Part shown: one piece after another, positions 8,455 to 51,250 of the stretch
Layout of the letters: every line of letters begins with the position of its first letter
Position numbering within the stretch: the first letter of the stretch is position 1
Assembly (NCBI GenBank): GCA_000091205.1
Contig: AP006501.2
Length of the DNA: 64,000 nt
DNA from: Cyanidioschyzon merolae
Taxonomy: Eukaryota
Direction: 5' to 3' (one strand)
Notes under the pieces: generated by a model
What the model saw: only the letters and a program-made list of their open reading frames with translations
The model's database searches: none
Told to the model about the DNA's origin: nothing
Position numbers and translations under genes: made by a program

Positions 8455-8513
8455 GCACACACACACACACACACATGCATACATACACACACAGACACAT
8501 ACACAAAGCCTCA
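8455..8513. repeat. (CA)n / degenerate CA-rich microsatellite
   Basis: cacacacacacacacacatgcatacatacacacacagacacatacaca. Confidence 0.9.
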
Positions 8514-8561
8514 GAACCGATTTGATGATGCCTGACCCAAAATACAGGTCAAGCGATCGCT

Positions 8562-22261: not shown

Positions 22262-22720
22262 ACGCCTCCTAGCCGTTTTCGACCGGCCCCCTGTTATCGG
22301 TTCCAGTGTATCCGCTGTACACCACGAGCCTGAGAGGTTGTGCGATAAAGTTAGATCACGTCAGCTCTGCGGCTCTCGTCTCCAGCACAGCATACTGCCT
22401 GATACTGGTAACAGCGTTGAATTCTCGGTTCACGAGCTCCTTGGGTTTATTGCCTCTGGTTGAACACATCCGTGCATGGATCACTAGATCTCGTACCCTC
22501 TGTGCCACTTAAGTCTAGCCTACTTCCCTCTTCTTCTTCATATCACTCGCTCTTCTTCGCTCGATAGTTGGAGCGAAGCGAATTTTTGTCGTTGTTTTCC
22601 GGCACCCGGCGAGGAAGGCACTCCAGGAGCCCCGACGCTCACGTTCATACCTCTGTATTTTTATTTCGTTACATGAACGCACTTTGAACACACCTGCTCG
22701 ATACCACGAAAAAGCACATT
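22262..22720 (-). mobile_element. Mariner-like element remnant, copy 1 (3' end only: transposase C-terminal coding plus 3' flank); transposase sense is the minus strand
   Basis: Block-wise nucleotide homology of about 70% to 33975-34300 (in reverse complement) and to 49965-50450. Sense-strand translation gives 'VAQRVRDLVIH...ELVNREFNAVT', which matches the mariner C-terminal region (HTARAVRDTL...SPDLAPSDYHLF). The copy is truncated on the transposase N-terminal side, before the ferrochelatase gene. Confidence 0.5.
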
Positions 22721-22962
22721 CTTCCACGCACCTGAGGCTCAATCATAATCGGAATGAAAGATGCTATGCAGCGCTCATATCCCGCTTTACGTATGAAACG
22801 TTGCCCGTCGTAACGCGGGCTGTACGATGAGGGCGCTCGACGCGGGGCACACGCGTCAGGCGCGTGCAGCACCATCGTGAACAGTTAGGGTTTGGCTGTT
22901 TTCGCTGACGTACCATACGAGAACGTTTGGGATCAGAGGCTTGACTTGGCCTAGACTTTGGC

Positions 22963-24294
22963 TTGAGATCCGCACGCGTTGCGGAGCACCATTACAATAG
23001 TTACGTCGTTATGTTTGTAGTCGTGCCTGGGAACGCCTGGCGCTTGCCCCGTCCTCGGGGCGGTTTGCACCGTCGCCCTACCTGGAGACTTTCCCTGATT
23101 CACGGGAGCGAGGACGGTCAACATGCGCTGACGAGCTCAGGTACAGCACGGAACGCCGCTTCACCGGCGACGAGCACGACCGCGACTGCAACGACGGCGC
23201 GCGTGGCAAACCGGGGCACCGCTGGCAGCGCCTCCTTCCTGGAGCCACGTTTTCAAGGCCGAACTGGTCTCATTCTGGTAAACATCGGGACACCGGCGAG
23301 TCTGAACGTTGCTGATGTGCGGCGTTACCTACGCGAGTTTCTCGGCGACGACCGGGTGGTCGACATCCGACCCAAATGGCTCAAGACGATTTTGCTGCAA
23401 GTGCTGCTCCTCACTCGACCAGCAAAGTCAGCGGAAGCTTACGCGAATATCTGGGATAAGGAGACAGGCTCGCCGCTGTTGCACTATTCTCAAGAACTTG
23501 CGACAAAGATACAAAAGCGGGTCGGCAATGGCTACGCAGTCGCTGTCGGCATGCAGTTTGGTGAACCGAACCTGGTCTCGGTGATGCACGATTTTCGTCG
23601 ACGCGGTATCGATCGAATGATTATCGTACCGATGTTCCCGCAGTACGCGAGCAGTACCACTGGGAGTGCCAGCGAGATGGCTTATCATACCGCGAGCAAA
23701 CTGTACTCTACACCGTACCTGCACATCGTGCCGGCATTCTATGACCATCCCGCCTACATACAAGCCTATGCGAACGTAATCGAACGAGTCATTGGGCCGC
23801 GAGGATCACGACGCGTAGATCACCTTCTGTTGAGTTTTCATGGTGTCCCTGAAAAACACTGTCAACAAACTGATGATACTGGTTTAGTTTGTATGCAGCA
23901 AGAGCATTGCTGCAGCGCGTTGGTGCAAGCGAATCGCAACTGCTATCGGGCGCAGTGTTTCGCTACTGCCCGCGCTCTAGCACAGACGCTGGGCTTGGCA
24001 CCTCACGAGTACTCGGTGTCGTTCCAGAGTCGCTTGACTGCTGCTGGACCAGAGTGGATTAAGCCGTATACCGATGAAGTGTTGACGATATTGCCGAAAC
24101 AGGGTGTGCGGCGCCTTGCTGTCGCCATTCCGTCTTTCGTTACAGACTGTCTGGAGACGCTCGAGGAAATCGGGATGCAAGGGCGAGAAGAATTCCTCAA
24201 TGCGGGCGGGGAAGAATTTTACCTGGTGCCGTGTCTGAATGATTCCCAAGAATGGGCCGATGCCTTGCTGCGTATTATCGAGGACTCGTGTTGA
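22963..24294 (+). CDS. hemH: Ferrochelatase (protoheme ferro-lyase) with N-terminal organelle-targeting extension
   Basis: 'LILVNIGTPASLNVADVRRYLREFLGDDRVVDI...AEAYANIWDKETGSPLLHYSQ...MIIVPMFPQYASSTTGS...LLSFHGVPEKHC'. The track start is TTG; the first ATG is 23011. About 90 aa of Ser/Thr/Ala/Arg-rich presequence precede the catalytic core. Confidence 0.85.
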   Translation: MRSARVAEHHYNSYVVMFVVVPGNAWRLPRPRGGLHRRPTWRLSLIHGSEDGQHALTSSGTARNAASPATSTTATATTARVANRGTAGSASFLEPRFQGRTGLILVNIGTPASLNVADVRRYLREFLGDDRVVDIRPKWLKTILLQVLLLTRPAKSAEAYANIWDKETGSPLLHYSQELATKIQKRVGNGYAVAVGMQFGEPNLVSVMHDFRRRGIDRMIIVPMFPQYASSTTGSASEMAYHTASKLYSTPYLHIVPAFYDHPAYIQAYANVIERVIGPRGSRRVDHLLLSFHGVPEKHCQQTDDTGLVCMQQEHCCSALVQANRNCYRAQCFATARALAQTLGLAPHEYSVSFQSRLTAAGPEWIKPYTDEVLTILPKQGVRRLAVAIPSFVTDCLETLEEIGMQGREEFLNAGGEEFYLVPCLNDSQEWADALLRIIEDSC

Positions 24295-24520
24295 GCGCGC
24301 AGCCTCTGTGTCTGCGCTGCTGTAGAAGCGCACATACCCGGCTTCGATGTATATGGTAGGCGCTGCGCTCATAAACGTGCCTCGGGGATTCAGAGTCCGT
24401 AGCGATCTATGGTATCGGACGTTTCGTTTATGAACCAGACACCTTGTAGCGCTATTGTAAACGTGCCGAGTGCCTGGTCGGCTTGATGCAAGTTCCCGAC
24501 TGTCTCGCGTTGGCGTCTCT

Positions 24521-27500
24521 TCAAGCCGGGCGCGAAGGCTCCTCATCGTTGTTTTCCGCGCCTCCGAAACAGCAGACACCGCATATGCTGCGAAACCATG
24601 AAGCGCTGCGCCCTCCGCCACGGTTATTCCACTGTCCGCGACGTTGCACTCGTGCCTGACGTCCAGAACGACGCAGTCCGGTACGCTCGGATGCAGCAGG
24701 GGCCCCTGCATCACTCGTTTCGGTGGATGAGCGGGCATCCGCGAGCGCTGCTTCCAACTCCGGATCGACGGGGAGGCGCTCCAGTCGACAAGCCGCGTCT
24801 CGATCATCCAATGCTTGGAGCGCTTGCATGTAAGTGGTCGGCACCAGCATGCCACTGCCGCCAAGAATGATATCCTGACCGGTTCGACTCATCACTTGTG
24901 CCGCGGACCGTGCTTCACTGTAGCTGATGCCGCCAGCGACAAACACAACGAGTCGCGGGGTGCGCTCCACGTAGTCGTCAGCAGCACCAGCAGCAGCAGC
25001 TGCAGCAGCAGCAGCTGGTGACCCGCTGGCACCGCCTCCTGCCGTCTCCACTTTCAGGGGCGACGACTGTGCACGCTGCACACTGGCAGCGTCCGTGGTG
25101 CTCAACGCACGTTGGCTTCCACGTCGACGTGCTCCAGCAGGCGTCGAAAAGGTTGCTCCTGGTGACCTATGCGCGTCGACAGTTGCCCCTGCGCTGGATC
25201 CGGTGCTCATGGACTTGGTACGCTGGATGCGCTGTGTAGCAGACTTCCCCGGTCGTCGATTCGACCCAGCAACAAACGAACTCGGCTGCTTTGGCGTCGT
25301 GTGCTCGTCGCTTTCGGTGCCAGTGTCGCTTTCAGTGCTCGATGCATTCGCGCCTGCTGATGTGCGTCCATCCGAGGCATTCACCTGGTGATCAGAGACC
25401 AAGGGCCATTCCGAAGCTCGCAAACGTCCATCCGCAAAGTCCTGCATGACGGATCGGAAGGCAGGCACATAGCGGCTGAGGGTGTACGGGACGTCTGCCT
25501 GTTGCATGCGCATTCGGTGCAGCTTGCGCTCTCGGCGCCGCCATTGACGCCGTTTCCACCAGTTCTTCGGTGCGTACTCATTGACGGGTGCACGGAAACT
25601 GACCAATGTCTTCGCTCCGTTCAGGAGGTGCTCAACGGACCCAGACGAAACCCTCGCGCGCTGCATCATCATGCGCTCATCGAAGAGCGCTGCGGATTCA
25701 CACTGACCGGTATACTTTGCGAGCATGGCGATCAGCACGAGACGCACACGCTCGGAATCCGGTAAAGCGATCGCTTGAGGTGCCTTTGAGGCATCCGCCT
25801 TGTCTCTGGTGCTCGAGGGTCTCTCGGTGCGCTGGATGTCGGGAAACAGGCGAAGGAGCGCCTGCTCGAGGGCTTCGCGGCGCACCCGGTGCCCTTCCAG
25901 ATCACGACCACAGGCAAGATCCTGTTCGAGACTCGCCACCTCTTCGAGATGACGTTCGTGAAACGCCCGCATGCACTGGCCTGCCAAGTACGTGTGCAGC
26001 GAGAATGCGCTCAGCTGTTCTCTGTACTGTGGGAGCGCACGAATCGCCGCACCGAGCTGCTTCAAGTTAATCTGCTGCGTACCGGGGCTACTGGCGCTAG
26101 TCTTATCGAGGCCATCAGTGCCGCCGCTGTTCGCGTTGCCATCAGCGTCATCTTTTCGGGCCTTGGTCATTTGCAGGCGAGCAGCTGGATTCGTGTCCAG
26201 AAACCTCTGAAACGCACTCGTCAGCGCTGGTATCGCGTCCGCCATGTGCAGATAGCGAATCGATCGGAAGAGTGCGTCATTCTCGACGTCGTCGATGACC
26301 ACCTCTCGCGACTGTTCACGGCCGCTGCTGTCGAAGAACGGGTGCCGTAGACGTGCACCACCAGCATGCGACCGATCGATTTCGTCAGCAAGAATATCCA
26401 TAACCATCGCCTGGTAAGTGAATTCATGAATCACCGGAGCCAGCGGATCATACGAGCGATCTGCGATCAGCAGTGTCCACGGTACTGGTGTTCGACTCGC
26501 TTCCGCTGCGCCTCCACCGGGCAGCATGCGACGAGCTTGGGAGCGTTGCGTACGCAGCGATACCTGCTTGTTCAGATCAGCGCTATGGGGTAACGCTCGG
26601 GCCCGAGCGTGCGTTGCCAGTGCTCGCTCAAGCTGGTGCGCCATCCACTTGGAAAGCGGCGCGTCTACCGCGAAACGAATCAGCGGCCGTGCTCCAATGG
26701 TGCAACACAGCGAGACCAGTTGCTCGACCTGGGTTTGCATCTCATTCACCATGCTGCCCTGGTCGGGGCAGTAGAGACGGTGCAGGGCCCCAAACGGACG
26801 ATCAAGGCTGAAGTAGCGTTCGTCTAGTGCCAGAAAATCGAGGTCCAGATCCACGCTCGCTACTACACGATCCCTGATGCTCTCCGGGAACACGTACTGA
26901 AGCGACGAGGCACCTGCCTCTGGAGCCAACGGGCGACCCAGTCCAGGCAACTGGGCTGCCAGCGACGAAGCATCTCGCGTGAAGTAGACGTGAATCGCGG
27001 CGTATTCATTTCGAGAAGGTTTCGATAAATAGGTGAAGGACTCAACGACAGGTCGCAGAATATAAATGGCATGCATTCTGGGAAATTTCTCTCGCGGTAA
27101 TTCGAGACGCTCGACAAGCGCGACACCCTCGTTGAGCAGATCCGATAAGCGCATTGCAGCGGATACAATACGTAGGGCATAGCGATCAAGGACCAGAAGC
27201 ATCCACTCGCGTTGTGCATCGACCGGTTGAGGGTGCTCCGTCGAGCGTACCCCAGTCCGAGCCCGTTCGATTTCGCGAAGGCGTTTCAGGCTAGCCTGAA
27301 TGACCAGGCGATGGAAACGCTCTCGCACAAGACTACGGATACCGGGTTGCAGGACGCTATCGTCGTCGACGGGGCCAAGGTCGAACACCGGCGACGATAC
27401 CGCCGGCACTTGAACATCGATCGGCATCCTGGGGTTGACGTCGCCCCTAGATGACGTTGATGCAGAGATAATGCAGTGCTGGGGGGTAGTCGCACCAGAG

Positions 27501-30399: not shown

Positions 30400-32949
30400 G
30401 GTCCGCAAACGTGTCGACGGACGCCCGTAGGACTGCTCAGAGAGGCCATTCCACACGTCTTTTTCAAACTGATGGGTACACGTTTGCGTTGCAATGCGGT
30501 ATCGCCGTCGGTCGAGTGATTCCTCAACCGCTCCGCATCGCTGCAGCGAGAGCTTCTCTTCGTGATGATATGTACGAACAGCGGGTCGCTCAATGAGCCA
30601 ACATCATTACCGGCTGGAAAGGATTTTGCTTTCTCTGACGGGAAGCAGTGGATTGGCTGCTTCTGGGGCTATCGTCTGTGACGACGACGTGCTGATGCAC
30701 GTTTCCAGAGAGCGGTACTGATCTCGAAACATGTCCGAATGGGCAGAACCGGTGCATGCTCCGGGAACAACGCGACTTTATGGTGCGACCTGGCCAAGTC
30801 GCTGCACATTCGGTGCTCTGAAAGAGCAGCACAGGCACAGCATTCGCTCTGGTCAAAACGCGATGCACCTTGTACGCATGGACGAGGTCTGCCAAGGAGA
30901 ACGCGATGCGGTTGCGCTGTCTATGATGAACTGGCAAGAGCCGCCAGATGAGAGCCGATGCCGCGGGTGTGTTTCATGGCCATCGTGGCCCCGTGCGCCA
31001 GCTGCAGCGATGTACCCAGCACCGCAGCATGTGCCTGCAGGGTCCGGCTCGCAGAGTCGATCAGAACTGAATATGAGACGCGCGTCGTGGTCTAAAGCTC
31101 GTCGACACTAGGAGCATCTGCACGGGCGCTGTGGTGCCTCCACTGGTTACGGGCTTTTGTCAAGGATGTATGCAGGAGTTCCTGGTGTCAATCCATCGAA
31201 TCTCTGTAGTAAATAACGCACTGTCATGCGATATTTGCACGCGACAGAGACATTCATCTGCAGGCAGAACGATCGGCATCGTTGTTCTTGTACTTGCATT
31301 GACCGTGGATGCCACTGGACGCTTTCCTGTGCAGCGTTGCGAAGCAAAAAGTGTCGCGTCGACGACAGCTGTGCGTTTGCAAGTACAGCGCTCGTTATGC
31401 ATGCTCATTTTCTACGAATAGTGTGTGTTGAACCCCATGTGCTCTGGGCATATCGGGCATGATGCTGTGTCGACTACCACGCAGGAATATTCTTGGCGTG
31501 TCGCAGGTGCTGGGAATCCCGCCTAGTGTTTCTCTCGGATGACGTTGGGAGATTGACGTCGACGCCCAGGTCAACGAATCCTGACAGCTGATGAGCACGC
31601 CTGGGCCGCACCATAGAAATGTATGTGTAGGCGCAGGCTCTGGTGCCGTGCGGAATGGAGGAAGCGATGCGCTCCTCTCACAGATCATCGGCAGCGGAGC
31701 GTTCGTCGACCTTATTCGGACTGGAGTGATGAAGGGAGAGCGGCTGTGAGCAGTGCTCACATCTACGGGCTCTCACGGAGTGTTTCACTTGAAGCATGGA
31801 TCGTTTCAACGGCCGTGTACGTGCTGCCTTGACAGATGCTGTGCATCGCTACCGTACGATGTGCCAGAAAATCCGGATGATGAGGACCAGGGACAAACTC
31901 GCGCGTGGACGCTCCGCAGAGGAGGCAATCGCGTTTGAAGAAAAAGGGATGGCGATGATGCACTTGAATCGGAGTTTTGTCTGCTGGAAAATACAGCGTA
32001 TGGGACGTGTGATATCAGCGGTCTCGAGTCACGGAAAAGTGAGAGCGGAAAGGCAGCCTCCGTAGGAGCCGTGCTCTCTCGATCGGGGAACACCCAACTT
32101 GTCCGTCTTCAGTTTCGGGCTCCGACTCGATGGGGTACAAGAGGGCATCACACGCCAAAGCAACGAAGCATGCGCTGCGTTCAGCCGTAGCCGCAGGTTC
32201 CGCTCCTGCCCCGTTCACGTTTCACCGCTTCTGACGACGCTTATAAAGTCACGGGGGTGGTATCGAGCTGTGTTCTGCATATAATTTTCAAGACAAGGCG
32301 CCCGATTCCAAGTGCTCGGTGTCCAGACACCCGCCATATGAGTCAACGTGCATGCTGGTCGATGTCATCATCGGATATGTGCTCAATGAACTTTCCTATT
32401 TAGGTAGCTCGCAAACTCGACGGACGCAGCCCTTCATGCATTCAGAGTATACGCAATCCCAAGCGCCCATCCCTTCTGTAAGGACCAAGTTTACGGCGAG
32501 GACGCCAAAACGTTGCAGGAAATGCACGTGAACGGCTCCCGGTATAGGTGTGTACTGGACTCGTTGGAACGGAGCCGCTCGAACTGCCACATATCGTCTG
32601 CGAAAGTGAAACCGAAACACCGACTAGGTATGAGTCAGCGATATCTGAGGCGGCTTTGACACACGTAAGCCGCCTACGCAGCGCACGTCGCACTGTTGTG
32701 TTCGGGATGAAACTTCCCCAGCTGGGCTGGGTGGCACTCAGAGAGCCACCCAGTCTCGTTTACGCTATGAATATAGAATTGGTATCGGCGGGATCCGTAT
32801 TCGTGCCTTCTAGAAGAGGCTGCGAAGCGGGTACGGCACCGGCGCAGGAATGGAGCGCATGCTTTTCCGCATATCGCGGAATAAAGCGAAACGGGTCCAT
32901 TTTGCACACGCAGGCTGAACGATAGTCTTTCAAGTGAATCTCGTTTCAT

Positions 32950-34300
32950 TCCCAGTTGCTGTGTATATTCGGCGGTCGAAACAAATATGAAATGAACACC
33001 ATGGATCGTTGACGAATTGCCTGAAGGATATCTACACATCTTTACTGAACAATGCAAAGAGGGCTGCATTCCTCCTTCGGATTCGTCACACCACAGTACT
33101 CTGATGGTTGACGAGCACAGAAAGAAACAAGTAGATGCGCTGCATGCCAAAACCCGGTATTCACAAAGACTGTTTGCGGTCAATGGGAGACAACGACCTG
33201 TTGTTCACCTTACGGGAGATGAAAGCGACAATAGTAGCCACCATGGGCGTCTCTGTTTCTCGACAGCTCATTCGTATGGTCTCGAAAACACTGGGATACA
33301 ATCGCAAAAAAAGAGTCCTTGTTCAACCACGGCCATTTTCCACCGAAATCGCAACCACAACAAAGATCCTGAAAAGTCACTACCGGTATGAAGCAGAGGG
33401 ACGTGGGTTTGTTTTTTTTCCAGTCGGTGAAACTTCCTTCGGACGAAACGATCGGTGCGTATATGGGTATTCAGGGGCGATGGGCGCCCGGTCTACGTAC
33501 GATCGAAGTCGAAGAGAACGAGGATAACATCGTCTGCTCTAGCTGCAATGGATTCATTTGGTGGCCACAGTTTCGTTCGCAGAGAAGCCACATACCATAG
33601 CACCCTTTTCGTCGATTCATTGAAGACTGTTCTTCGACGCCTCACGGGGTCCTTCTATTAAGCAACCTAGTGTTTGACCATTCCAGTGGCGTTCCAGCTT
33701 TTGCGGATTCTATCTGGTAATATAGCTGCTTTTCATTTCTCCGCACACTCTGTGGTTCATGCCCATCGAAGCACCGTAAGCTGTCTTATAACGTAATGAT
33801 CGCTCCACTGGGCGAATCACTGATGCGTTTAGTACACGGTAACACTCCGAGGCACGTGCTGTCTTTGTTTCGCAAACCCTTCTCCTTCCGGGAAGGTCCT
33901 CGTCCAAGGGCATAGAGAACTGCGTTTATTTCGAAGAAATAAGAAACCTGAGGGGCGAGCTGAGGTGTGCGCACTTTACCAGGTCGCGTTTGAGAAACCC
34001 CAGCGCAGCGCTTTGGCGATAGAAACGCACGCGGAGCTGGCGGAGCACCAAATGGCACAGAGGGCACGCGTTCGAGGACTCCCTGCATTGGTGACTTCAA
34101 CCAGTGGTAATACATGGAAGGAGTTCTTGAACTGAGACTTCAACGCTGCAATTAATAGCAGAAGATATGCGATACTGAAGATGAAACCCACGGAGCTGAC
34201 GTGATCCAGCTTTGTGGAGCAGCATCTCAAGGTCGAATTGCATCAGGAGAAGTTGATGCCAGTGGTAGGTGGCCAGTCAAAAAACGCTGGGAGGCGTCTA
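32950..34300 (+). mobile_element. Mariner-like (Tc1/mariner superfamily) element, copy 2, degenerate; the transposase reading is broken into at least 3 frames on the plus strand
   Basis: N-terminus 'MVDEHRKKQ'. HTH 'ATMGVSVSRQLIRMVSKTLGY' (compare mariner 'LEVSQQAVSNRLREMGK'). DDE-N region 'RIWVFRGDGRPVYVRSKSKRTRI...DSFGGHSFV' (compare 'DEKWIFF..PKRKKSYV...KHGGGSVMV'). The C-terminal module at 33975-34300 is homologous to copies 1 and 3. Boundaries are approximate and TIRs were not resolved. Confidence 0.6.
33135..33661 (+). pseudogene. Frameshifted mariner-like transposase (HTH plus N-terminal part of the DD(E/D) domain)
   Basis: ORFs 33135-33527, 33388-33600 and 33455-33661 overlap in three frames. 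Each carries successive transposase segments, as listed for the copy 2 mobile element. Confidence 0.55.
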
Positions 34301-34365
34301 TGAGAAGGTGGATATATGTACCCTACATGGTGGTGGGGCATTATTTGTTTCACTGACTGTAGCGT

Positions 34366-35118
34366 ATTGGTCACTTTTCACTGTCATGAACGACAGGAAC
34401 TTTTGCGTGCCTCTTCTGTGACTGCTTCCTTTTCCTCGATCCCCGATCTGTGGATTTCAATACGCAGGTCTCGCTTGTCGATCCAGCTCCGCTATCAAAG
34501 AATTTGACGCCCAGAGTGAAGCTCCCGTCTATGCTTCGCTTGGCATTGTCGATCTCTGTGTATACAGCGTCGGTGCGACCCTCGAAGCGCTTGCTCGTCC
34601 GTATGGTCAAGTGTTCCCAGGGGTGTCCAGTGCACCTCCTCCTCCTCAGAGCGCCGTCCTGCCGAACGTTAACGCTTGCTATGTCGCTCGGTACATGCCC
34701 CTGACTGATACGGAACGCTGCCATCGGCGCCCGCACTCCGCTCCCGAGTCCGATGCCGTACCCTACGACCACGAGCTTGTTCTGGGCAACGCTCTCGGCG
34801 AGTGCGCTACCCGACGCACACGAGAGCGCTCACTGTCCCATTCAAAAACGTGTTTGTGGGAAGCGGTGTCGCTCATGGTGAATAAGCACCGAGCGGGAAA
34901 TCCAGGATACGGAACAAGTCGAGCGATATCGATCCGTCTCTGCGCTCTTCGAATAATACCTTGTCGCGTTTTTTTGCACTGGAAGCGAATGCTGCGATGG
35001 CTCAAGCCCAAGTCCGAGACCTTTCCTATGGAGAGAAAAGAGGCAGGGAGCGTCGAAGAGCGTGTCCTCTGACAGGTATGATGCTGCTCGGGATTGTCGA
35101 TTTATCGATTGCTACAAA
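34366..35118. repeat. Direct repeat A1 (about 753 bp), about 99% identical to 37585-38338
   Basis: Base-by-base comparison finds about 8 mismatches in 750 bp (for example ctatcaaag/ctgtcaaag, gttaacgc/gtgaacgc, gaataagc/gcataagc). Both copies give identical 153-aa (+) and 133-aa (-) ORFs apart from 2-3 substitutions. It contains 'gacaggtatg', a possible splice-donor-like site. Confidence 0.9.
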
Positions 35119-35703
35119 GAAGGGCGGATTTTTCAACTAGAAGGATATCCATCGTCTGACGAAACAAGTTCTGTAAACTTTCTGAACGAGCTTGTGAACA
35201 AATCGTTGAAGACGCCGTGGAGGTGTTTCCTCGACAATCCAGCAGCGCGCATAGCAGCGCGCGCGAGTTGCCTTGAAACAGAAAGATCGATGACTTGGAG
35301 AATATTTAATTGCTTCAATTTACACATCATGAATGGAGAAGACTATAGTCTTCTCCATATGCATTGCATCGCGATATCACATAAATGACAAAATTTTGTC
35401 CGAGAACGTCGCATATTGCCTTTTATTCCGATGACGTGACAAACTCCAACGACGAAGAGGCCAATGATCTACATCGAAAAGACGACCGAGAATTCCAAAT
35501 TTTCGTGCGAATCGGTAAATACCCTATTCCTACACATCGAACGTTGAGGATGTGCATCCAAAACAAGTTCGGAAAGAAACCTCAAGGCGGGAGCGAACCA
35601 TGGAGTTCAGGGCTCCACGTTCATCCAACAGAGATGCAGGCTGGGAAGCGGTTGCACCAGGTCGTCTGCAGAGCCTGCCCCATGCTCTCTTCAAATCGAA
35701 TGT

Positions 35704-37002
35704 TTAAATCGACTGACAGATACGCAGCAGCCGCACTCCGTTACCAGAAGCGAGACGCTCTAGCCGCCATAGAGTATGCGCATCGACTGCGTGGAAAACC
35801 TTGTGATCCTGGAAGTCCTTGAGTATTCGTTGTATTTCGTCGCTGTGAAACCGCGGTATTTCCTGGATCACTGGTTGCAAATTCGACGGAAGTTCCTGGT
35901 CCACCCATCGGGCAGCCTGACTGCCGTCAGGGTCCCGCTGCATTGCCGGTGTTGGTCGGTGCAGAACAGAGCCCACAACGCGAGACGCCCGCACACGTCC
36001 GAGGCCCCGAGCGCTGGTCTCCGCGCATAGCACCAGTCCACGTCGCATTCGAGCCCCGAAGCGCGTAAACATGTTCCATGCGTTCAGCGGACGAAGGCTA
36101 CGAAGCGCACTGGCATGCAAGAAACGTCCCTTTTTCTGCGGATGCCGAATGCTCGTGAGTGCATTCAACAAATTCCAATCATCGATTGCAAAGAGCACAG
36201 GAACCTGTCGGACACATTGAAGTTGGCGCAGAAAAAGCCGATAAGTCCGACCAAAGGCATCCAGGTTCAACTCGGCGAGCTCACCTTCCAGTCGGCGGCC
36301 AGATTGCAAGCAGGCATCCACCAGTCCCAACAGGTTGGTATGCTGATCAGTAGACGTGGCGGTCTGGCGCGCCACATCTCCGTCCCGCGCTTCATCATCG
36401 AGGTCACTCTCCCGAAGCAGTTGCTCCGTAGGAAGACAGGTAATGGATTCCAGCGTTCGGGCATGGACCTGGCGACACGCCTGCAGGCTGTCAAGCACCA
36501 GACGAGCCTGATCGAAGAAAAGAGGTTCGCGCAACAAGCTCGCACTCCGTGCACCTCGAGGTCGCGGTGTTAGAACCACGTCACAAGAGTCGCGTTCATG
36601 TAGCCAGTGGTACAGGTTTGGCAGATAGAACACCAGCCAGTCCTGCTCACGAGCTCGCTCGACAGCGTGAAATAGACTCGTGCTCTTCCCGGAACCTGGT
36701 GGGCCACGAAGCAGCACACATCGCGTACCTTGCCAGAGCGGATCAGATCGCTCTTGAACCAGCTTCCACACGTCTGCGTCTGCCTGACGCCAAAGCAGTT
36801 TCAGGGCAGTTTTCGTTTCTGTACTGTGCCGTTTGCTGGCGTCTGCGCCGTGGACCTCCGTCCAACGAGCGAGCACCCCTTTGGGCCAAGCCTCCGGAAC
36901 CAGACGGTGACTCAACACTCGAAACTCATTAACAACAGCTGGGGTATGATACAAACGACCAAGCAGCAGACACGTGCTGAACACTGGCCTGCAAGCCCGC
37001 AT
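35704..37002 (-). CDS. P-loop NTPase, probably mitochondrial ribosomal protein mS29 / DAP3-like
   Basis: ATG at 37002; 432 aa. Walker A 'LLRGPPGSGKSTSLFHAV' followed by 'FYLPNLYHW' (DAP3-like 'IPDAxxW') and C-terminal 'SGNGVRLLRIC' (compare DAP3 GNPRELxxLC). The N-terminus is presequence-like ('MRACRPVFSTCLLLGRLYHTP'). The family call is tentative. Confidence 0.45.
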   Translation of the reverse strand: MRACRPVFSTCLLLGRLYHTPAVVNEFRVLSHRLVPEAWPKGVLARWTEVHGADASKRHSTETKTALKLLWRQADADVWKLVQERSDPLWQGTRCVLLRGPPGSGKSTSLFHAVERAREQDWLVFYLPNLYHWLHERDSCDVVLTPRPRGARSASLLREPLFFDQARLVLDSLQACRQVHARTLESITCLPTEQLLRESDLDDEARDGDVARQTATSTDQHTNLLGLVDACLQSGRRLEGELAELNLDAFGRTYRLFLRQLQCVRQVPVLFAIDDWNLLNALTSIRHPQKKGRFLHASALRSLRPLNAWNMFTRFGARMRRGLVLCAETSARGLGRVRASRVVGSVLHRPTPAMQRDPDGSQAARWVDQELPSNLQPVIQEIPRFHSDEIQRILKDFQDHKVFHAVDAHTLWRLERLASGNGVRLLRICQSI

Positions 37003-37584: not shown

Positions 37585-38338
37585 TTGGGTCACTTTTCAC
37601 TGTCATGAACGACACGAACTTTTGCGTGCCTCTTCTGTGACTGCTTCCTTTTCCTCGATCCCCGATCTGTGGATTTCAATACGCAGGTCTCGCTTGTCGA
37701 TCCAGCTCCGCTGTCAAAGAATTTGACGCCCAGAGTGAAGCTCCCGTCTATGCTTCGCTTGGCATTGTCGATCTCTGTGTATACAGCGTCGGTGCGACCC
37801 TCGAAGCGCTTGCTCGTCCGTATGGTCAAGTGTTCCCAGGGGTGTCCAGTGCACCTCCTCCTCCTCAGAGCGCCGTCCTGCCGAACGTGAACGCTTGCTA
37901 TGTCGCTCGGTACATGCCCCTGACTGATACGGAACGCTGCCATCGGCGCCCGCACTCCGCTCCCGAGTCCGATGCCGTACCCTACGACCACGAGCTTGTT
38001 CTGGGCAACGCTCTCGGCGAGTGCGCTACCCGATGCACACGAGCGCGCTCACTGTCCCATTCAAAAACGTGTTCGTGGGAAGCGGTGTCGCTCATGGTGC
38101 ATAAGCACCGAGCGGGAAATCCAGGATACGGAACAAGTCGAGCGATATCGATCCGTCTCTGCGCTCTTCGAATAATACCTTGTCGCGTTTTTTTGCACTG
38201 GAAGCGAATGCTGCGATGGCTCAAGCCCAAGTCCGAGACCTTTCCTATGGAGAGAAAAGAGGCAGGGAGCGTCGAAGAGCGTGTCCTCTGACAGGTATGA
38301 TGCTGCTCGGGATTGTCGATTTGTCGATTGCTACAAAG
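37585..38338. repeat. Direct repeat A2 (partner of 34366-35118)
   Basis: See A1. Identity stops at '...gctacaaag' on the 3' side and '(tt)ggtcacttttcac' on the 5' side in both copies. Confidence 0.9.
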
Positions 38339-38984
38339 CGAAGAGTCATCGACTTTTCGGAAAACATCGGTTAATTGGCCTGATAGATTCACAGATCTTT
38401 CATCATGATCACTGAGACGAGACTCCAAGGGATAGGTCGATGTTTGTCCTCGTCAATGTCGCAGCGCGAATTGTTGCTCCCGCAAGCTGCCCTGAGACAG
38501 AGGGATAAAAAACTACATGTACGCATGATTTCAGCATGCTACAAGTAATAAAAGGAGCATAAATGAGACTTGTTCATAGCAACTGACGAAACATATCTGC
38601 TACTTACATAAACCTCGTTCAAGATCAGCGCGAGTCACCGCAATGCTCGTGATGCTACGAAATCCAGCGGCAACGCGTCGAATGAGTCACGCTGAAAAGA
38701 CAACTGCGAATCCTAAATCTACGTAAACATCTGTCATTTCGATGCTGTACACATAGAAAAAAACCCGGAAAACCTTCGTACAGGAGCAGAGTAAGCATTT
38801 CCGCGTTCTATATGCATCCGTAACCAGTGTCGCACGCCCATCGCTCGTGCAAACATCGTGCCACAGTAGACCGCAGACACAGATGCTCCAGGTTGAAGAC
38901 GCTCACCTACACTACATGCAGTGCTTCATATTACCAGATCCATAAAATATTTAGGGAAGGGCTCGGATACCTCACCGCAGGTTC

Positions 38985-41900: not shown

Positions 41901-42458
41901 TGCGGGCCGCGTTGCGAGAACCTCGTTGTTCAGGAGCGTCATCGGTACGAATGGGAACCGCGCCAGCTATTATCCCAGATCCTGCGGATTTATCTGTCGA
42001 TGCACGATCCGCTTCGGGATCGTGACGGCACCAGACGCTTCTGTTGCTCAATAGCAGCTGACGGGCGCTCGTATCGACCGGAGGTTTTCGAGCGGGCGGC
42101 GCAGATAGCTGCAACGCGGGGCCTCTTGACGCCTGCCGAGTGCCAACGATTTCACGAACTCGTCGAGTCCGTGGCGATCTGTGCTAAGGAGCTTGTTGCC
42201 GAGGATGAGGAGCTCAGCGAAGCACCCGACGAATTCCTAGATCCGATTCTGGCAACCCTGATGCAGGATCCCGTCATGTTGCCATCGAGTCGCAAAATCG
42301 TGGATCGCTCGACCATCGTGCGACATTTGTTGAGCGATCCGCACGATCCATTCAACAGACAACCGCTGAGAATAGAGGACGTGATCCCGCAACCAGCGCT
42401 CAAAGAACAGATTACGAGCTGGCTACAAGAGAGACAGGGAACGCGGCGTGTCTCGTGA
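38985..42458 (+). CDS. UFD2: Ubiquitin conjugation factor E4 (UFD2 family) with C-terminal U-box
   Basis: ATG at 38985; 1157 aa. C-terminal U-box: '[48 protein letters not shown]'. The core resembles UFD2 ('[17 protein letters not shown]', '[19 protein letters not shown]'). It contains poly-Q tracts encoded by (CAG)n. Confidence 0.85.
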
Positions 42459-42464
42459 GCGGGT

Positions 42465-42493
<29 letters not shown>
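42465..42493. repeat. (CTG)n microsatellite directly after the UFD2 stop
   Basis: ctgctgctgctgctgctgctgctgctgct. Confidence 0.9.
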
Positions 42494-42495
<2 letters not shown>

Positions 42496-43099
42496 TATAT
42501 CGGCGAGCGCGCGTACTGGACGAGATATCTGGTTTCGGGGAGCTCGCTGCCACTGCGATACACTAAGCTGATCCGACCTGCGTAAACTGACCGAGAAAAT
42601 GGAGCAACGGCACACCATGATCGTCGACAAATGGACCGGACAGATCGTCTCCGGTGTTGATACACGGCGCTCTCGTGAATCTGGATTCCTGACCTGGACC
42701 GCACGAGTGCGCTGTTCCAGGCGGGATTCCCATGCCCTCTCACCTGGCTACTGTTTTTTCTCATCGCAAGTCTTCGGCGTTTCCGTACAGTGCCCAAACG
42801 GAGTACGAAACGATGACCACGAAACTTTGCTCGATACAAAGCCAGTCGTCGCTCCAAAAGCACACGGCGATGCCGGGTATTGATCCAAGCGTCCAAGTCC
42901 GGATGCGGAAGGAGCTCGTGTGTATTGCTGCAGGTGGAATCTCGATATTGCAAGCATCTCACCTGTTATTGCCTCGCGGTGTGAGGTTCGCTCAGCTTAG
43001 CATACACCATGCGGTGCATCGTTTGGTTTCACGCGATGCCTCGCTTCCAGCCTCAGCGCGCAACGCTCCTCGAGATGTGTGTACGTCATCCTAAACGCA

Positions 43100-44745
43100 T
43101 CGATGGGAATCGAATACCATCGATGCCTGTTCTCGTTGCACACTCTAGGCGAAGGAGCTGGTGTGTTAACTTTTTTTGGGAACCGTGCGCCCTGCTCCGT
43201 ACGCTACTACGAGCCTCTGACTCTGGTCCTCCGTGAGGGCGCTCATCTGATTAAAAAAGTTGGCGAATGCAAGCCGTTTCCCTTTGCACAAGTTCAGTCG
43301 CTGACGAGCCCACCTGGGCTTTGTATACTCTTTCCGTAGCGCCTCGTCATGAGCAGCTTGAGTTCCCGTGGATTCCCGAAAAGCTTCAAAGGCCGCTTTG
43401 CGGCCCGTCAGTTTGTTCATCGCTTCCAGATGCTTCTTCATTCCTGAATTCCACGTCTCACTCTGTTTCCTTGCATTCATTATACCCGATTCTTGGTGAT
43501 ACCTCGCTCTTGAGAACTTTCAAAGACGCATGCCTTTCTGAAGTAAGTTGCCGTCGATACCATCTTTCGCACACTTGCGTGCAGCAATGGTTACGATCTT
43601 CGTGTTCTCGGGGCGAAGAGCAACGACAAATTCGTTCTCCTACGGGTTATACGTTCCAGGATCTGCCTCCTTTTTTTCTTCATGTTCCGCCAAGGGCGAC
43701 AACAAAGACGCATTAGGTCGATCCACCTTCAAGCGCCTGTAGTGAATGCATGTGGACACTCCATCGATATCGAACATCCCCGTGAATACCTTTTGCTTGC
43801 TGATTTTGAGACGTTTGAAATTGAAGATGTTCTTCCAGTACGTCTCCCGGTTTTCGCCGGTGAAGTCCTCCCTGCTAACATAGAACTCGGGACAGATCTG
43901 CTTCATGATTCCATGAAGGATTCTGGAGTCGATACTCACAAAATGTGACCTGATGTTGCACAACAGAACGATGTTGAAGCGCTTCCCCGTTAGGAAAGCC
44001 TTCCGTCTCTCCCACTCTTCATTTTTTCTCGACACGCCTCCTTTTCGGCCTTGCGTTCGAGTTCTCGATTCAAAAACACGAAATAGCGTAGCACGAGGTG
44101 ATAGCATCTTTCTTCATCTTTTATCATATCTGATCCCTGTTCTGTTGGGTTGACAAGCCCCGAGACCGCACGGTGCTCTTGAAAAGCCGCACGGATCACA
44201 GAAGCTTCATTCTTTCTCCTGGCTGATGCCTTCTTGTTGACGAATTCGATCTCCTGTTTATTCCTACAATTCTTCGTGATGCCGTTGATGATGGCCCATA
44301 TCGTTTTGCGAGAGAGGCCCGGGTAGAGTGCAAACACGGCGCGTATCACGAAACGTTCGATATTCACGATCATATGGTTCCTCGGGCTCGTGGGGTATCT
44401 CATCGCCCCGTATTCGGAAATACGCGAGTCACCCCTGTATCCAGTACCGTCGAAGCGGTATTTGGCGTGATTTTCGTGGAGGGCATGCACTCGCTCATTT
44501 TTCGTCGACGCGTCCCCTGTGCCAACCATCAGGTGACGAATAAAGTTCATGTTGAGAAACTCTTCCGAAACCTCGACTGTTTTGATGTCCGTCACGTCGT
44601 GATACATCCCCTGCACCAAATGCATCAGCCCTGAAGAAGCCTCACGAACACTCATGGAGTACGAATCGACATGGTTTCTGATGGATTCTCGCAACGTTTC
44701 CTTCTACGAGTCCTTGATAGGTCCAAGAGGACAGGCTTTCACAAC
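43100..44745 (-). other. AT-rich (about 45% GC) island with a fragmented, single-orientation ORF set (at least 490 aa across 3 frames); candidate unclassified mobile or foreign element
   Basis: Minus-strand ORFs 44703-43990 (234 aa), 44107-43640 (155 aa) and 43480-43166 (104 aa) are consecutive and overlapping and all point the same way. GC content is clearly lower than the flanks. The upper boundary at about 44745 coincides exactly with the truncation point of a mariner-family fragment. No family was recognised; motifs noted are '[21 protein letters not shown]' and 'WARQRLNLCKGKRLAFANFFNQM...QRLVVAYGAGRT'. Confidence 0.4.
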
Positions 44746-45000
44746 CATATCGTCGTGCTGTCGTCATTCTGGGAGCTTCTGACATTGGACCTCCCGATTT
44801 TGCCTCTTCCTTTTGTCTTGCACTTCTGCGCTTGGTACTTTTGTTCGTTTTTTCTTATGCGGCAGCTGGCGGCACCTGCCCTCCAGGATCCTTCATTTCC
44901 GTGTCCAGGACTTTCCTTTGCTATTTTTTTGAAAAAAAAACGCACATTGAACGCTTCTGTTATGAAACACGTAAAATCACTTGAATACACTAATGTGAAC
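44745..45000 (-). mobile_element. Mariner-like family fragment (end of the C-terminal module plus 3'-flank module), truncated at about 44745
   Basis: 'atcgtcgtgctgtcgtc...cttccttttgtcttgc...ccctccaggatccttcatttccgtgtcca...aacgcacattgaacgc' matches 50200-50440 of copy 3 block for block (including ccctccaggatcctcgacttgcatgtcca). Translated similarity 'ALQDP..CP.LS' is shared with copy 3. Confidence 0.5.
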
Positions 45001-46311
45001 GTTGAAAGACGATTGAATTGAAACACTATAATTTGCAATGACTTGAACGCAGATGCAACTTGTACGTCGAAGCGACAAGTCGACGAACGGTCAGGATCGC
45101 GTTACATTTCAACGGCGACATGCGTGTCGCGTCTCGTGAAGGCCTGATCTCCCAGGTGCGCATATCGAACCTACTATATAGAATAAAGAGCAGAGACTCT
45201 AGATTCACCCGCAAATATGAATAGCCATATTTCTTTCCCCTCTACGATACACGTTAAACGCGGGAAAAGTTTCTTTATTGCGGATAGTTTGCTTCATAGG
45301 CGATGGGTCCCGCGAACCGGACGAGTCTGTCGAGGATGTGCTTCATGCGACTCTGCAGTACCGAGCGCTGTAGTGAGACCCCAGCAGCTCGTCGGCAACG
45401 CAGTCTATTCTGGGACTAGGGCCAGTTAGGCTGCGTCTGTGCGTCACCCTGGTCGCGGTGGACTCCTAGTATATCGCTTCGCGCTGCCACAGGAAGTACG
45501 CCAGTCCGCGCGGGTTTCAGGCTCCTAGAATGATAATGTATACCGATTCCATGTTGAATGAACCACGCCTCGGGCCGATGCTCCCAGTTGTATGGCAAAG
45601 CCGTTGCGTCCCCGGGCAGCATCTGCTTCAGCGGTATGCAAGCGCTACAGTGGGTGCTCGAAGCAGGCACTCGGCGCACCAAAGAACATACGAAACAACC
45701 AGTATATCCGAGAGGAATTATCGGTAATGGAACTTGAAGGTATGGTGCGGAATGATGGACACAATCTCGATTACCAATGTCCGTCGTGCAATCTGGGATT
45801 CACGGACAATGGAAACCTCATCGAAAAATTCACCAGTGAGATCAACACTCGGGCGATCGTGCGCGCCATTGCCAGTGGCGGACACCGGATCGCACATGCG
45901 CAAACAGATACCCATATACTTATGGAGGATCGTAACTTGCTCAATTTCTATCCAGGTACTTATATATACATAAATATATAATATGGCACACCATTGGAAA
46001 TCGAATCGAAAGCGGGAACGGCCGCGGGATCCATGCGCCGATGCGCCAGGCGTACGGGCGCACGACCCGCAAGGACATCGATGCATGCGCATCGCGCGAC
46101 CGTGATGCCGCGTTTGCCGCTTCCCAGATGCGCCGTCTGCGGAATCTTTCCCTGCACAGATGCGCTCGTGTACGCCGATGATGCACCTCCACCGTGATCC
46201 AAAAACATGTGATATGCAACGTTTTTTTTCGTTGTTGTTCTGCGAACGATACGTTCACTCCTATTCGAAGAAAAAGTCACTTGAATCAATCGATCTGAAA
46301 GCGATTCAACA

Positions 46312-48168: not shown

Positions 48169-48299
48169 CACTAGCGTTTGTGGGTCTGCGTGTGCTGTTT
48201 TCGCAGAGTGATCGAAAATGCTTCCTCAACGCAAAATTTGGTTTAAGGAAATGGTCCATCCGACAATCACATCCAGCGAGATTGTAAAGTTACGACCCA

Positions 48300-49103
48300 T
48301 CAGTATCGACGCTGATGCATCGACGTGATCTTCTCCATGAAGAGCCGTTGTCGCTCGCGTACGCTCAGCTTGCTCACGAGCTCAGGCGAGGCCAACGGAT
48401 CGTTGCCTCGGGACCGACCACCGTGAGGGCTCGCTCCGCTGCTCTCCCGACGCATCTGGCTCGAAGCGTCCGCTGCCTGCACATCCGACACACTCGCCGC
48501 TTCAAGACGATCGCAAAGCTCCTGCAACTTGCTCTCCGCGTATTCGCGACGCTGCATCTCGAGAGTCAGGGCCTCGGTCATCTCCTGGCGAAAGCGCTCA
48601 AAACGTTCCCGCAGTGTGTCGAGTTCGGTCTCAAGGTCGGCACATCGGTAGCGCCAATATTGTTCTCCGGTGCCCGCCGGGTGCTCTGGAGCTGAGCGCG
48701 CTTTCGCAGATAAGTTGATCGGCTGCTTCCATAGGGTTGCGGGATCAGCGCCCTCTTCGGAGACTGCGCTCGCGTCGGCCGCTCCAGTCGTGGACACGTT
48801 TTCCAAGTTGCCGTCAAGGCGCTTCGTGTTCGGCTCCTCCTCCGCCGCCGCTGTGATGTTCAGTTCCCGCAAGGCTTGCTCCAGCTCAGCTTGCCCGAGT
48901 TCTCGGCAGTAGTTCTTGGGCAGCCAGCCCTGTGCACCATCGCGCAAACGTTTCCCATGCACCCATTTTGAGTCTGAGACCGTTTCCCCGACTGCAAGGA
49001 TATCACCTCGTTCCAGTTTCAGTTGCCCTTTACCTTCCTTACCAGCAGGAGGGTTATAAGGATACCTGCACTTGACCAAACGCTGCATGATCTTTTCTTT
49101 CAC
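48300..49103 (-). CDS. SH3-domain protein with C-terminal coiled coil
   Basis: N-terminal SH3: 'LVKCRYPYNPPAGKEGKGQLKLERGDILAVGETVSDSKWVHGKRLRDGAQGWLPKNYCREL'. The first ATG is at 49088; the track start is GTG. The C-terminus is a heptad-like E/L/R-rich helix. Confidence 0.6.
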   Translation of the reverse strand: MKEKIMQRLVKCRYPYNPPAGKEGKGQLKLERGDILAVGETVSDSKWVHGKRLRDGAQGWLPKNYCRELGQAELEQALRELNITAAAEEEPNTKRLDGNLENVSTTGAADASAVSEEGADPATLWKQPINLSAKARSAPEHPAGTGEQYWRYRCADLETELDTLRERFERFRQEMTEALTLEMQRREYAESKLQELCDRLEAASVSDVQAADASSQMRRESSGASPHGGRSRGNDPLASPELVSKLSVRERQRLFMEKITSMHQRRY

Positions 49104-49964
49104 AAGAACGGAAGCGCAGCGCGATCAGACGGTACCGAGAGCGCCCGTGGCTATCGCGCTCGTCGGGGTGCAGAGAAAACCGCGGCGAGGCGCGCGGATC
49201 GGCGATTTGAATTTCCTGTGGATGGTGTCGTATGGATGCATGGGAGAAGGTGTCCACGAATTCCGCCATTGTTGTTGGCAACCGGGACAGCAGCCACCAC
49301 TTCAATCCAATATTGTCGAATGCCAGTAGTTAGAAGCGGGATTGGCTTTCAGAGACCATGATTCATTCATGTGAGGCTTCGGATTCTAAGCGTACCGTTC
49401 GTGGTCTTTGCGATTGGCTCACGCGAACGTCGCGCTGTTGTGCTGAAGCGGCCCGATATCACTCGGTTGTGCAGTTTCCGATCTTTCGATATACCTGCGT
49501 CAGATGAAAATGGGAATGAGAATCATAAGATCTGCTCGCACTTCTCGGTTTTACGGACTATTTATTCGATTTGTAGTTTTAGTGGTATAAGTGCAGCAGT
49601 GAGGGTTTGTGGACTCAGAGGTAGTTTTTCGGATTCTTTGTCGTGTTTTTCAGAGTGAATTGCTCGGCGCGTTGCGCTTGAATTCATTACGTCATTATCC
49701 GTACGATCATTCGGGACGCGGTCGAACGCGGTCTTATGAAACAAGAGATTAGAGTATCCAGTGTTTGGGTAGAAGCCTCCACGCTTCTCCGCATCCTTGC
49801 GTGTCGCTTGACCGGCTCCTGCGTTCTTCAAGTTTTCGATCACTCTGTGCCAAGACAACTGGCGGGTGCAGCAATTTGCGCCGTTCGACTGATAAGTGAA
49901 AATATGGCCGGGAACACGATAAACATTTCACGACAATGTAGGGAAAATTAGTGTCCATTCGCAG

Positions 49965-51250
49965 ATATCTTGCAGCTTTTTGCTGGCCGGCCATCAGCAA
50001 CCGGTTTCAGTGTAGCCAGACATGCTTCGAGCCTGAGAGGCTGCCCCATAAAGTTAGATAGCCTCAGCTCCGCGGGTCTCGTCCTGGGCACCGCGCATCC
50101 CCTGATATCGATGGTGGCAAGGAAGTCACGGTTCACGAACTCCATGCAGGCACTGCCGCTGGTTGAACGCACCTCTGCAAGGAGTCCCCGAACTCGTATC
50201 TTCTGTGCCACTACAATCTCGTCATCGTGCTGTCGGGCAAACACATTTTTTGTCATCTATAGCTTCTCTTCTTTTCCTGTTTTGCTGCTTGCGCCTCTTC
50301 GCTCAATGGTTGGCGAGAAGGGAATTTTTATTGGCTTTTTTTTGTCGAACCCGGCGATGACGGCCCTCCAGGATCCTCGACTTGCATGTCCATACCTCTC
50401 ACATGGATTTGTTATCTTTGATAATGAACGCAATTCTTTGTGCCCTTAGGTGAGAACCTTCTCTGAGGGTGAAGGACCTGCGGTGGAAAGTCGACATTTA
50501 CCCTGGTGTCACTGTGTGCTGAACGCTTCAGCGATTCGCCAAACGGTGCGGTCATTACGTTTCAGGATGGAAAACACTCCTTCGACAGGGATGAACTTTC
50601 GTGAGCACGGAGATATGATAAACAGATCTGTCACGATAGAATCGCCAAGAGCTCGAACGCAAAGGTAAGAGCAATCGTTCCGTTGTTCAATAGAAGGACG
50701 GCGCCGGACGTCAGCGAAAAGTCTTCGATGATTCGACAAAGTGGCTGGTGCTGTTTTACGAGCCCCCTCTGCACGAACGAACCTGTGGCCGCGAACTGAA
50801 TCCACTGCAGCTAGAACAGATGATGATATCCTCATTCTCGTTCAGTTCGATAGCACATACAACGGGCTCTCTCTAAGTACATACCCATGGACGCCCCCAC
50901 CGTTTCGTCCGAAACAAGTCTTATTGACCGAAAGAACGGACCGACGTTCCTGTACTTTATATCGATCGCTGGGTTTCAGGAATACTGCAGTAGCTGCACT
51001 TTCGGAGGACGAAGGCCGTGCGTGAACTCGGGCTCTTCTTTGGCAACAGTATCCCAGTGTTTTCAGGATCACCGGAACAAGCTGTTGAGGAACAGAGACC
51101 CCTGTGGCACCTACTGTATTTGCTTTTGCATCCCTTAAGGCGGCAAACGGGTCGTATGCTATCATGTACCTCAACCATTCTTCGAGAACATCAGTTTTTA
51201 TTATGGAGCGCATCTCCTTCTGTCTATCCCAGTGTTCCTCAACCATCTGA
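49965..51250 (-). mobile_element. Mariner-like element, copy 3, degenerate; transposase on the minus strand
   Basis: Minus-strand ORFs: 'MVEEHWDRQKEMRSIIKTDVLEEWLRYM...ATGVSVPQQLVPVILKTLGY' (N-terminus plus HTH), '...RISSSVLAAVDSVRGHRFVRAEG' (DDE-N), and C-terminal 'IVVAQKIRVRGLLAEV...SACMEFVNRDFLATI' (compare mariner 'TARAVRDTLE...SPDLAPSDYHLFAS'). Nucleotide homology to copy 2 runs at about 75% over more than 1 kb. It lies directly upstream of Rpn6. Confidence 0.6.
50509..51246 (-). pseudogene. Frameshifted mariner-like transposase (N-terminal HTH plus DDE-N part)
   Basis: ORFs 51246-50842 and 50835-50509 are on different frames. They align at protein level with the copy 2 fragments (for example GVSV..QL...V.KTLGY and SFGRN...V.GY). 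Confidence 0.55.

Follow-up and report, generated by a model that had tools for sequence, protein, structure and literature searches.

Decayed Tc1/IS630-type transposase and Fanzor1 sequences in Cyanidioschyzon merolae, probable relics of one composite transposon lineage

The 64,000-nucleotide stretch of contig AP006501.2 analysed here (hereafter the window) is nuclear DNA from Cyanidioschyzon merolae, a red alga. Its Rpn6 open reading frame (ORF; 51575-52834) is identical to BAM82690.1 of strain 10D, from the 1.28-Mb chromosome, and the window has about 56% GC, with long and intron-free eukaryotic ORFs. Several decayed mobile elements lie among its genes. Copy B (32923-34357, plus strand, 1435 bp) is a short element made of a transposase pseudogene and the 3' remnant of a gene for Fanzor1, a predicted TnpB-like nuclease. 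Copy D (49907-51445, minus strand, 1539 bp), which adjoins the Rpn6 gene, is also short and combines a transposase pseudogene with a deleted Fanzor gene. Copy A (22202-22759, minus strand) is an internally deleted Fanzor element without transposase, whose upstream part is of the type of the published family CMe-1A, and copy F (42650-45816, minus strand, 3' limit approximate) is a near full-length, 3.1-kb CMe-1A element with a Fanzor1 pseudogene. All of these copies are dead, with broken frames and mutated or missing catalytic motifs; a first-pass annotation of the window had already judged the family to be probably non-autonomous. We consider it very likely that they are relics of one lineage of composite DNA transposons of Cyanidiales red algae.

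The first-pass annotation had proposed that four regions, corresponding to A, B, D and a region C (44745-45000), share homology and encode pieces of a mariner transposase. The homology of A, B and D is far beyond chance in blastn searches, and it is alignable rather than a product of low complexity or GC bias. These repeats have 65-73% nucleotide identity overall: B and D are 69% identical over 861 bp (E=5e-92) and 72% identical over another 185 bp, while A matches both at 71-73% over 149-186 bp (E 1e-16 to 1e-22). Region C matched none of the other regions with the first search settings. Looser settings revealed weak matches to A and D only (110-185 bp, 59-65% identity, E 3e-5 to 4e-6), and region C belongs to another element, the larger 3.1-kb copy F. 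The copies A, B and D themselves extend further than had been proposed. Repeat-induced point mutation (RIP) was ruled out as the cause of their decay, the transition/transversion ratio being about 1.1 and the RIP indices normal. The family is also present in hot-spring metagenomes, where a partial ORF (P0001) is 97% identical to copy D.

Transposase sequences were difficult to recognize in such degraded copies. Among single ORF pieces the best Pfam match was a non-significant one to DDE_3 (E=0.068), and the 432-codon reading of copy D had no significant match in Pfam. A profile of the three window copies retrieved only decayed ORF fragments from hot-spring metagenomes, on contigs that carry more full-length decayed copies with mutual identities of 64-69%. 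Since single pieces gave no significant Pfam match, a consensus was needed. Projecting all copies onto the frame of D produced wrong frames in the DDE core; we therefore used the majority of six copies, which restored most of the reading frame. This consensus matches Pfam DDE_3 with E=4.6e-21 (75.6 bits, cut-off 28.6) and, below the respective cut-offs, HTH_33 (E=0.0022) and HTH_Tnp_Tc3_2 (E=0.027) in its N-terminal part. Searches with phmmer of both D and the consensus against PDB sequences matched no solved transposase. The consensus does match more than 200 intact DDE_3 proteins of about 295 amino acids at 40-50% identity, and these carry the two helix-turn-helix domains of Pfam. Their alignment reveals the catalytic motifs DETSF, LLLDN and NPIE; 34 residues separate the second from the third, i.e., the DD34E spacing. 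The third catalytic residue is thus E, which makes the enzyme Tc1/IS630-like and not a mariner transposase sensu stricto: Mos1, a DD34D enzyme, belongs to the same superfamily but has D at this position. Hence, the assignment to Tc1/mariner holds for B and D at the level of the superfamily, whereas that to mariner proper does not. Judged from their sequences, B and D are decayed copies of an IS630-Tc1-mariner superfamily transposase. Like Tc1/IS630 transposases, the family has this catalytic domain with its DD34E spacing and a PYSPWFNPIE motif, and its N-terminal part holds a putative helix-turn-helix. The family differs from classic Tc1 in being shorter (about 295 amino acids) and linked to a second gene, and in the window it consists only of pseudogenes.

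Searching the window with intact DDE_3 transposases located such sequences in B and D only; the same search, which matched B and D in their raw state, gave nothing in A or C, so that the earlier claim of transposase pieces in all four regions does not stand. In B, the decayed DD34E gene occupies 32992-33900 (plus strand, 3' limit approximate) and is interrupted by frameshifts and stops; intact transposases align to 33039-33866 in tblastn searches (E 1e-10 to 1e-17). In D, it occupies 50430-51354 (minus strand, 3' limit extrapolated), starts with an ATG at 51354 and contains stops and compensating frameshifts. An intact homologue, P0093, aligns through its residues 1-262 to 51354-50557, and another, P0026, extends the alignment to 50518 (E about 1e-16 to 7e-19). 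In both copies the frames are broken and the two catalytic aspartates mutated: B has VGETSF for VDETSF and LLLSN for LLLDN, and D has VNKTCF and LLLNN at these places. Two segments singled out by the first reading, GVSV..QL...V.KTLGY and RPVYVRSKSKRTRITSSALAAMDSFGGHSFV, do lie in the true transposase frame. In contrast, the proposed N-terminus MV(D/E)EH is out of frame, MVEEH being a misreading of "...LRWLRNTERKK"; the ORF begins with MY.IDRR, about 45 codons further upstream (51354 in D). The string RIWVFRGDG is likewise an out-of-frame reading.

The 3' part of the short copies does not belong to the transposase. Intact homologous transposases end about 30 residues after NPIE..KR, and none covers the last 180 or so codons of the D reading. 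By its sequence, the 3' block (VNRDFNAAINIRR) corresponds instead to the RuvC-III C-terminus of a Fanzor1/TnpB-like gene from which the middle was deleted. Thus, the segment "AQ+VRDL...VNRDF," which had been likened to the C-terminus of Mos1, is a real conserved block but it is Fanzor sequence. Searched with the consensus of this block, Cyanidiales-type metagenome contigs yielded short ORFs that form 55 clusters. Among them were longer Fanzor C-terminal halves, and these led to a fifth locus of the window, namely the Fanzor pseudogene of copy F. In B, the remnant of the Fanzor1 C-terminus lies at 33957-34303 (plus strand, stop codon TGA at 34301-34303). It corresponds to residues 615-726 of the CMe-1 protein (57% identity over 112 amino acids, E=1e-28) and to nt 2739-3082 of the CMe-1A consensus (72%), of which no other part matches B; its RuvC-III motif is present but disrupted (LN*DFNAAINS). 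In D, an internally deleted Fanzor1 gene (49960-50398, minus strand) has N- and C-terminal parts fused near 50200: the first 57 or so codons (MDMQVEDPGGP...RQHDDEIVV), which match the N-terminus of the published CMe-1 protein, are joined to about the last 85 (KIRVRGLL...VNRDFLATIDIRG...). There, nt 869-962 of CMe-1A match 50435-50337 and nt 2849-3084 match 50194-49961, the protein is 51% identical to CMe-1 residues 640-722 (E=2e-16), and RuvC-III reads NRD. In A, nt 793-969 match 22759-22585 and nt 2830-3081 match 22510-22261; the match to the CMe-1 protein has E=1e-9, and RuvC-III reads VNREFNAV (NRE). The 3' block of A, B and D and the start region of A and D are 68-72% identical to CMe-1A, and RuvC-I and RuvC-II are missing altogether from all three copies. 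The Fanzor sequences of all four copies, F included, are remnants and not functional members of the family. Two other ideas about this block were discarded. The string "..TIERRRASDKT.." is not the Fanzor motif DEFRTSK (RuvC-II), since comparison with copy F and the CMe-1 protein identifies it as an out-of-frame Fanzor N-terminus. The small ORF left by the deletion does not seem to be held open by selection either: by a rough estimate, open copies are no commoner than decay alone would leave.

Copy F connects the window to a described repeat. CMe-1A is a C. merolae Fanzor1 family with a 3169-bp consensus and about 150 copies, around 80% identical to it; it has no inverted repeats, is listed without a transposase and without an assigned class, and its first 635 bp correspond to TE-N2_CMe (PMC3627910). 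In a previous study of the C. merolae genome, the class II elements numbered eight and were "closest to bacterial transposases"; the study also counted a 3.2-kb repeat, present in 253 copies, whose ORF resembles WSV486 of the white spot syndrome virus (WSSV) (PMC1955436), a virus in which Bao & Jurka 2013 listed a Fanzor (PMC3627910). CMe-1A probably corresponds to this 253-copy repeat of Nozaki et al. 2007. F is a member of CMe-1A: positions 45816-43069 are 81% identical to nt 13-2741 of the consensus over 2752 bp, and the translated sequence is 69-71% identical to CMe-1 residues 18-657. Its Fanzor ORF starts near 44904 and the remains of its C-terminus end near 42712, with ORF fragments left at 43990-44694, 43640-44107 and 43166-43480. 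The catalytic motifs are mutated (ALRPEN, IDAFRMT and HPD for GADPGN, VDEFRTS and NRD). The matches to CMe-1A identify region C as the spacer and the N-terminus of this Fanzor gene. They also dispose of the proposal that one copy is truncated where an AT-rich island begins: this AT-richer stretch is the Fanzor gene body of F (GC about 0.48-0.50), and the short copies lost the body by internal deletion.

Comparing the copies with CMe-1A reveals a modular organization. CMe-1A shares with A, B and D the 250-345 bp at the 3' end of Fanzor, and with A and D also the start region. In B and D, a DDE_3 transposase gene replaces nt 1-868 of CMe-1A (including TE-N2_CMe), and around 590-610 Fanzor codons are absent. 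Conversely, the place of the transposase gene is taken in CMe-1A by an unrelated 5' module that ends 37 nt before the Fanzor ATG. This module boundary, at nt 869, is the same in all short copies. In copy A, the CMe-1A-specific sequence extends back past the boundary, to nt 793, and A hence derives from the transposase-free form. The deletion breakpoints of the B-type copies differ from those of the D-type copies and of A; hence, the Fanzor body was lost more than once, and each time the last 250-350 bp or so were retained.

Are the two genes linked beyond the window? A scan of metagenomes identified 79 related loci, which after dereplication comprise 25 copies with full Fanzor and 11 with transposase plus deleted Fanzor. 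In the Cyanidiales copies L077 and L081 (around 1036-3761), a partial transposase gene (residues 13-194) directly precedes a full-length Fanzor1 pseudogene; of all that we found, these copies come closest to the proposed two-gene progenitor. More distant relatives have the same gene order. L009 and L012, two intact relatives, have ORFs of 649 and 798 amino acids, respectively, 3' of the transposase gene and on its strand. The C-terminal part of the L009 ORF reads "...LVDEFRTSK...LRGLLWYCSTNGCSNFVNRDLNAAINI...ERP," and the protein matches the Fanzor structure of Spizellomyces punctatus (8GKH, E=4.5e-5) and, weakly, Pfam Cas12f1-like_TNB. Both genes lie within one 3159-bp unit bounded by 32-nt inverted repeats (5909-5940 and 9036-9067; 84% complementary) that are flanked by TA. 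Identity to the Cyanidiales consensus is 41% for the L009 transposase (7e-75), and identity to CMe-1 is 28% over 696 amino acids for the L009 Fanzor (3e-68), so that the two proteins are both homologous to their Cyanidiales counterparts. L010 and L011 proved to be this locus again and provide no independent insertion sites. The L009 element (5909-9067 of JACCEC010242673.1, in GCA_013573275.1), with a 296-residue transposase, appears from its sequence to be an intact Tc1-like transposon with Fanzor1 and may be active. Its contig has 21% GC, and most neighbouring ORFs are without Pfam matches. The closest intact relatives are in very AT-rich contigs, and the element may have arrived by horizontal transfer, e.g., from a giant virus.

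The combination of these genes in one element is of a known kind. Fanzor1 has been found in Mariner/Tc1 elements of Pythium ultimum (PUl-1) and of a Phaeocystis globosa virus (PGv-1) (PMC3627910), and the group Fanzor1c is associated with Mariner/Tc1 (PMC10530073). These composites have the architecture described above, a transposase of about 300 amino acids followed by Fanzor1 on the same strand in about 3.2-3.6 kb, and the L009 element resembles them also in its TA-flanked inverted repeats. The window copies differ in having a deleted or dead Fanzor and no demonstrable inverted repeats or TA duplications. The PUl-1 transposase is 31% identical to that of the Cyanidiales family (3e-14), with the similarity confined to the catalytic core.

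The limits of B and D were placed where conservation drops among 14-16 copies: it starts at "TAGTCTTTCAAC" and stops after "GTTTCACTGAC," giving 32923-34357 for B and 51445-49907 for D. The 5' and 3' ends of B are TAGTCTTTCAAG and GTTTCACTGAC, and A ends at 22202 with TTTCACTGAC. Whereas B and D terminate with GTTTCACTGAC, CMe-1A ends in ...TTTTGAAAGGCG. A 12-nt pair in D (49934-49945 and 51345-51356) was rejected as an inverted repeat because it overlaps the start codon. Among CMe-1A-type loci, the last 20 nt or so occur in two variants, CGTTTTTCTTTTGAAAGGCG and CGTTCGACTTTCGAACGGCG (e.g., L061, L067 and L043 versus L070, L053 and L071), and each variant could fold, downstream of a GCCGCCA...TGGCGGC hairpin, into a terminal hairpin of its own; the terminal one is not called by RNAalifold, and this two-variant end is not preserved in copy F.

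Several results weigh against the interpretation as a composite transposon with an RNA-guided nuclease and should be kept in mind. We found no convincing terminal inverted repeats in B, D, A or the Cyanidiales metagenome copies, and no consistent TA duplication in the flanks of the old Cyanidiales copies; the first-pass suggestion to locate both features in the window copies led to nothing convincing. Transposition as a single unit is consequently deduced, and not directly visible, in the Cyanidiales elements. RNAalifold, applied to 16 short-type and 20 CMe-1A-type 3' ends, found no supported structure, and an Rfam scan of the 3' ends gave no match, leaving the guide RNA only putative. The matches to Pfam Cas12f1-like_TNB are under the curated cut-off. 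The CMe-1 Fanzor had no direct match among solved PDB structures (phmmer), so that its link to an experimentally characterized Fanzor goes via L009. Finally, none of about 90 Cyanidiales loci examined has an intact transposase ORF.

How could the ancestral element have worked? It would have been about 3.2 kb long, with two genes on one strand. The first would encode a DD34E transposase of the Tc1/IS630 type, of about 300 amino acids, moving the element by cut-and-paste, and the second a Fanzor1 of about 730 amino acids, a TnpB-like RNA-guided nuclease. By analogy with TnpB, a guide RNA could be produced from the 3' end of the element, and Fanzor could cut the emptied donor sites such that the element is copied back. 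Retention of elements via RNA-guided cleavage is established for TnpB and has been proposed for Fanzor (PMC10530073). Since we found neither functional copies nor a 3' RNA structure, we infer this mechanism from the families to which the two proteins belong. B and D have kept the transposase gene and lost most of Fanzor by two different internal deletions, A is a deleted Fanzor element without transposase, and F a near full-length copy of CMe-1A. This architecture, the homologies, the breakpoints of the deletions and the loss of every catalytic motif are shown by the sequences. The independent deletions that spared the last 250-350 bp or so would point to a cis-acting 3' module, either the guide RNA or an end bound by the transposase.

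Other explanations fit these data less well. The copies could form a plain Tc1/mariner family, in which the D reading of about 430 codons is one transposase and the VNRDF block its C-terminus. D can indeed be read in a single frame from 51246 to 49951 with just four stops, and several copies preserve this net frame from the N-terminal to the C-terminal block. Yet this frame takes in stretches that are out of the ancestral frame, the intact homologues have about 295 residues and none covers the C-terminal 180, and this C-terminal block is homologous to the C-termini of Fanzor1 and is preceded by the Fanzor N-terminus MDMQVEDPGGP. We give this explanation almost no credence. Chance nesting, where a Tc1/IS630-like element beside a CMe-1A fragment was spread by segmental duplication or recombination and the pair was never one transposon here, would explain why inverted repeats and target duplications are undetectable and why the 5' module of CMe-1A is another one; chimeras with an exchanged 5' module are also common among Fanzor elements (PMC3627910). 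It accounts poorly for at least 11 dereplicated short copies that, at different loci, agree in their 5' and 3' ends as well as in the boundary, for the two independent types of deletion, and for the transposase followed by full Fanzor in L077/L081. The distant L009 and L012 hold both homologues in the same order, in L009 within one pair of inverted repeats. We regard chance nesting as improbable, if the least so of the alternatives.

It is also possible that the transposase pieces are bacterial IS630 elements acquired by horizontal transfer and have nothing to do with eukaryotic Tc1-Fanzor elements. The matching Pfam family, DDE_3, is one typical of IS630, unannotated metagenome contigs are the source of most intact homologues, and the eight class II elements of C. 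merolae were described as closest to bacterial transposases (PMC1955436). However, the copies lie between nuclear genes of a finished chromosome, the closest contexts that we examined have a Fanzor gene downstream, and the Fanzor-linked "Mariner" transposase of Pythium is detectably related (31%, 3e-14). A purely bacterial source is thus very unlikely, though slightly less so than a plain mariner family, and an ultimate bacterial or viral origin, though conceivable, would leave the identity of the copies unchanged. We therefore favour relics of one composite Tc1/IS630-Fanzor1 lineage.

Extending this reading from the window to the genome, we see about an even chance that the eight class II elements and the 3.2-kb Fanzor repeat (150-253 copies) derive from one Tc1/IS630-type transposon carrying Fanzor1. 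If true, this common origin would settle the class of CMe-1A, left open by Bao & Jurka. Among finished eukaryotic genomes, that of the model organism C. merolae is one of the simplest and poorest in transposons, and its main repeat is a Fanzor1 element of unassigned class. Joining a transposase to the Fanzor module provides a plausible mobilizing enzyme, and an origin, for the CMe-1A repeat. What is new is modest: the few elements of C. merolae that bear a transposase are physically linked to its Fanzor repeat, which is abundant and unclassified. It adds a red-algal case to the known association of Tc1/mariner with Fanzor, based on non-functional window copies, and no new mechanism.

The elements have other repeats for neighbours. 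A family of about 1.2 kb, here called E and without Pfam-recognizable ORFs, is interspersed in the window at 34369-35541, 37588-38758, 13119-14223 (inverted) and 49551-49883 (partial). One E copy starts 10 bp past the 3' end of B and another lies just past that of D. Of the 79 related metagenome loci, 24 have E-like copies within 3.5 kb, at distances and in orientations that vary. E therefore looks like an independent repeat that clusters with Fanzor elements, and the idea that it is part of the element or forms its long inverted repeats was rejected. The DAP3-like gene (35704-37002, minus strand) lies between the copies at 34369-35541 and 37588-38758, which are direct repeats. From an alignment judged by eye, their first 800 bp or so are nearly identical and their last 400 bp or so much more divergent, which suggests recent gene conversion or partial duplication. 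Microsatellites of the type (CTG/CAG)n lie directly past the 3' end of A (around 22170-22199) and near the decayed 3' end of F (around 42470-42500), and (CAG)n also follows the 3' end of a metagenome copy (L091). Elsewhere in the window, a tandem repeat at 10465-10787 has a 110-bp unit in 2.9 copies with 98% matches.

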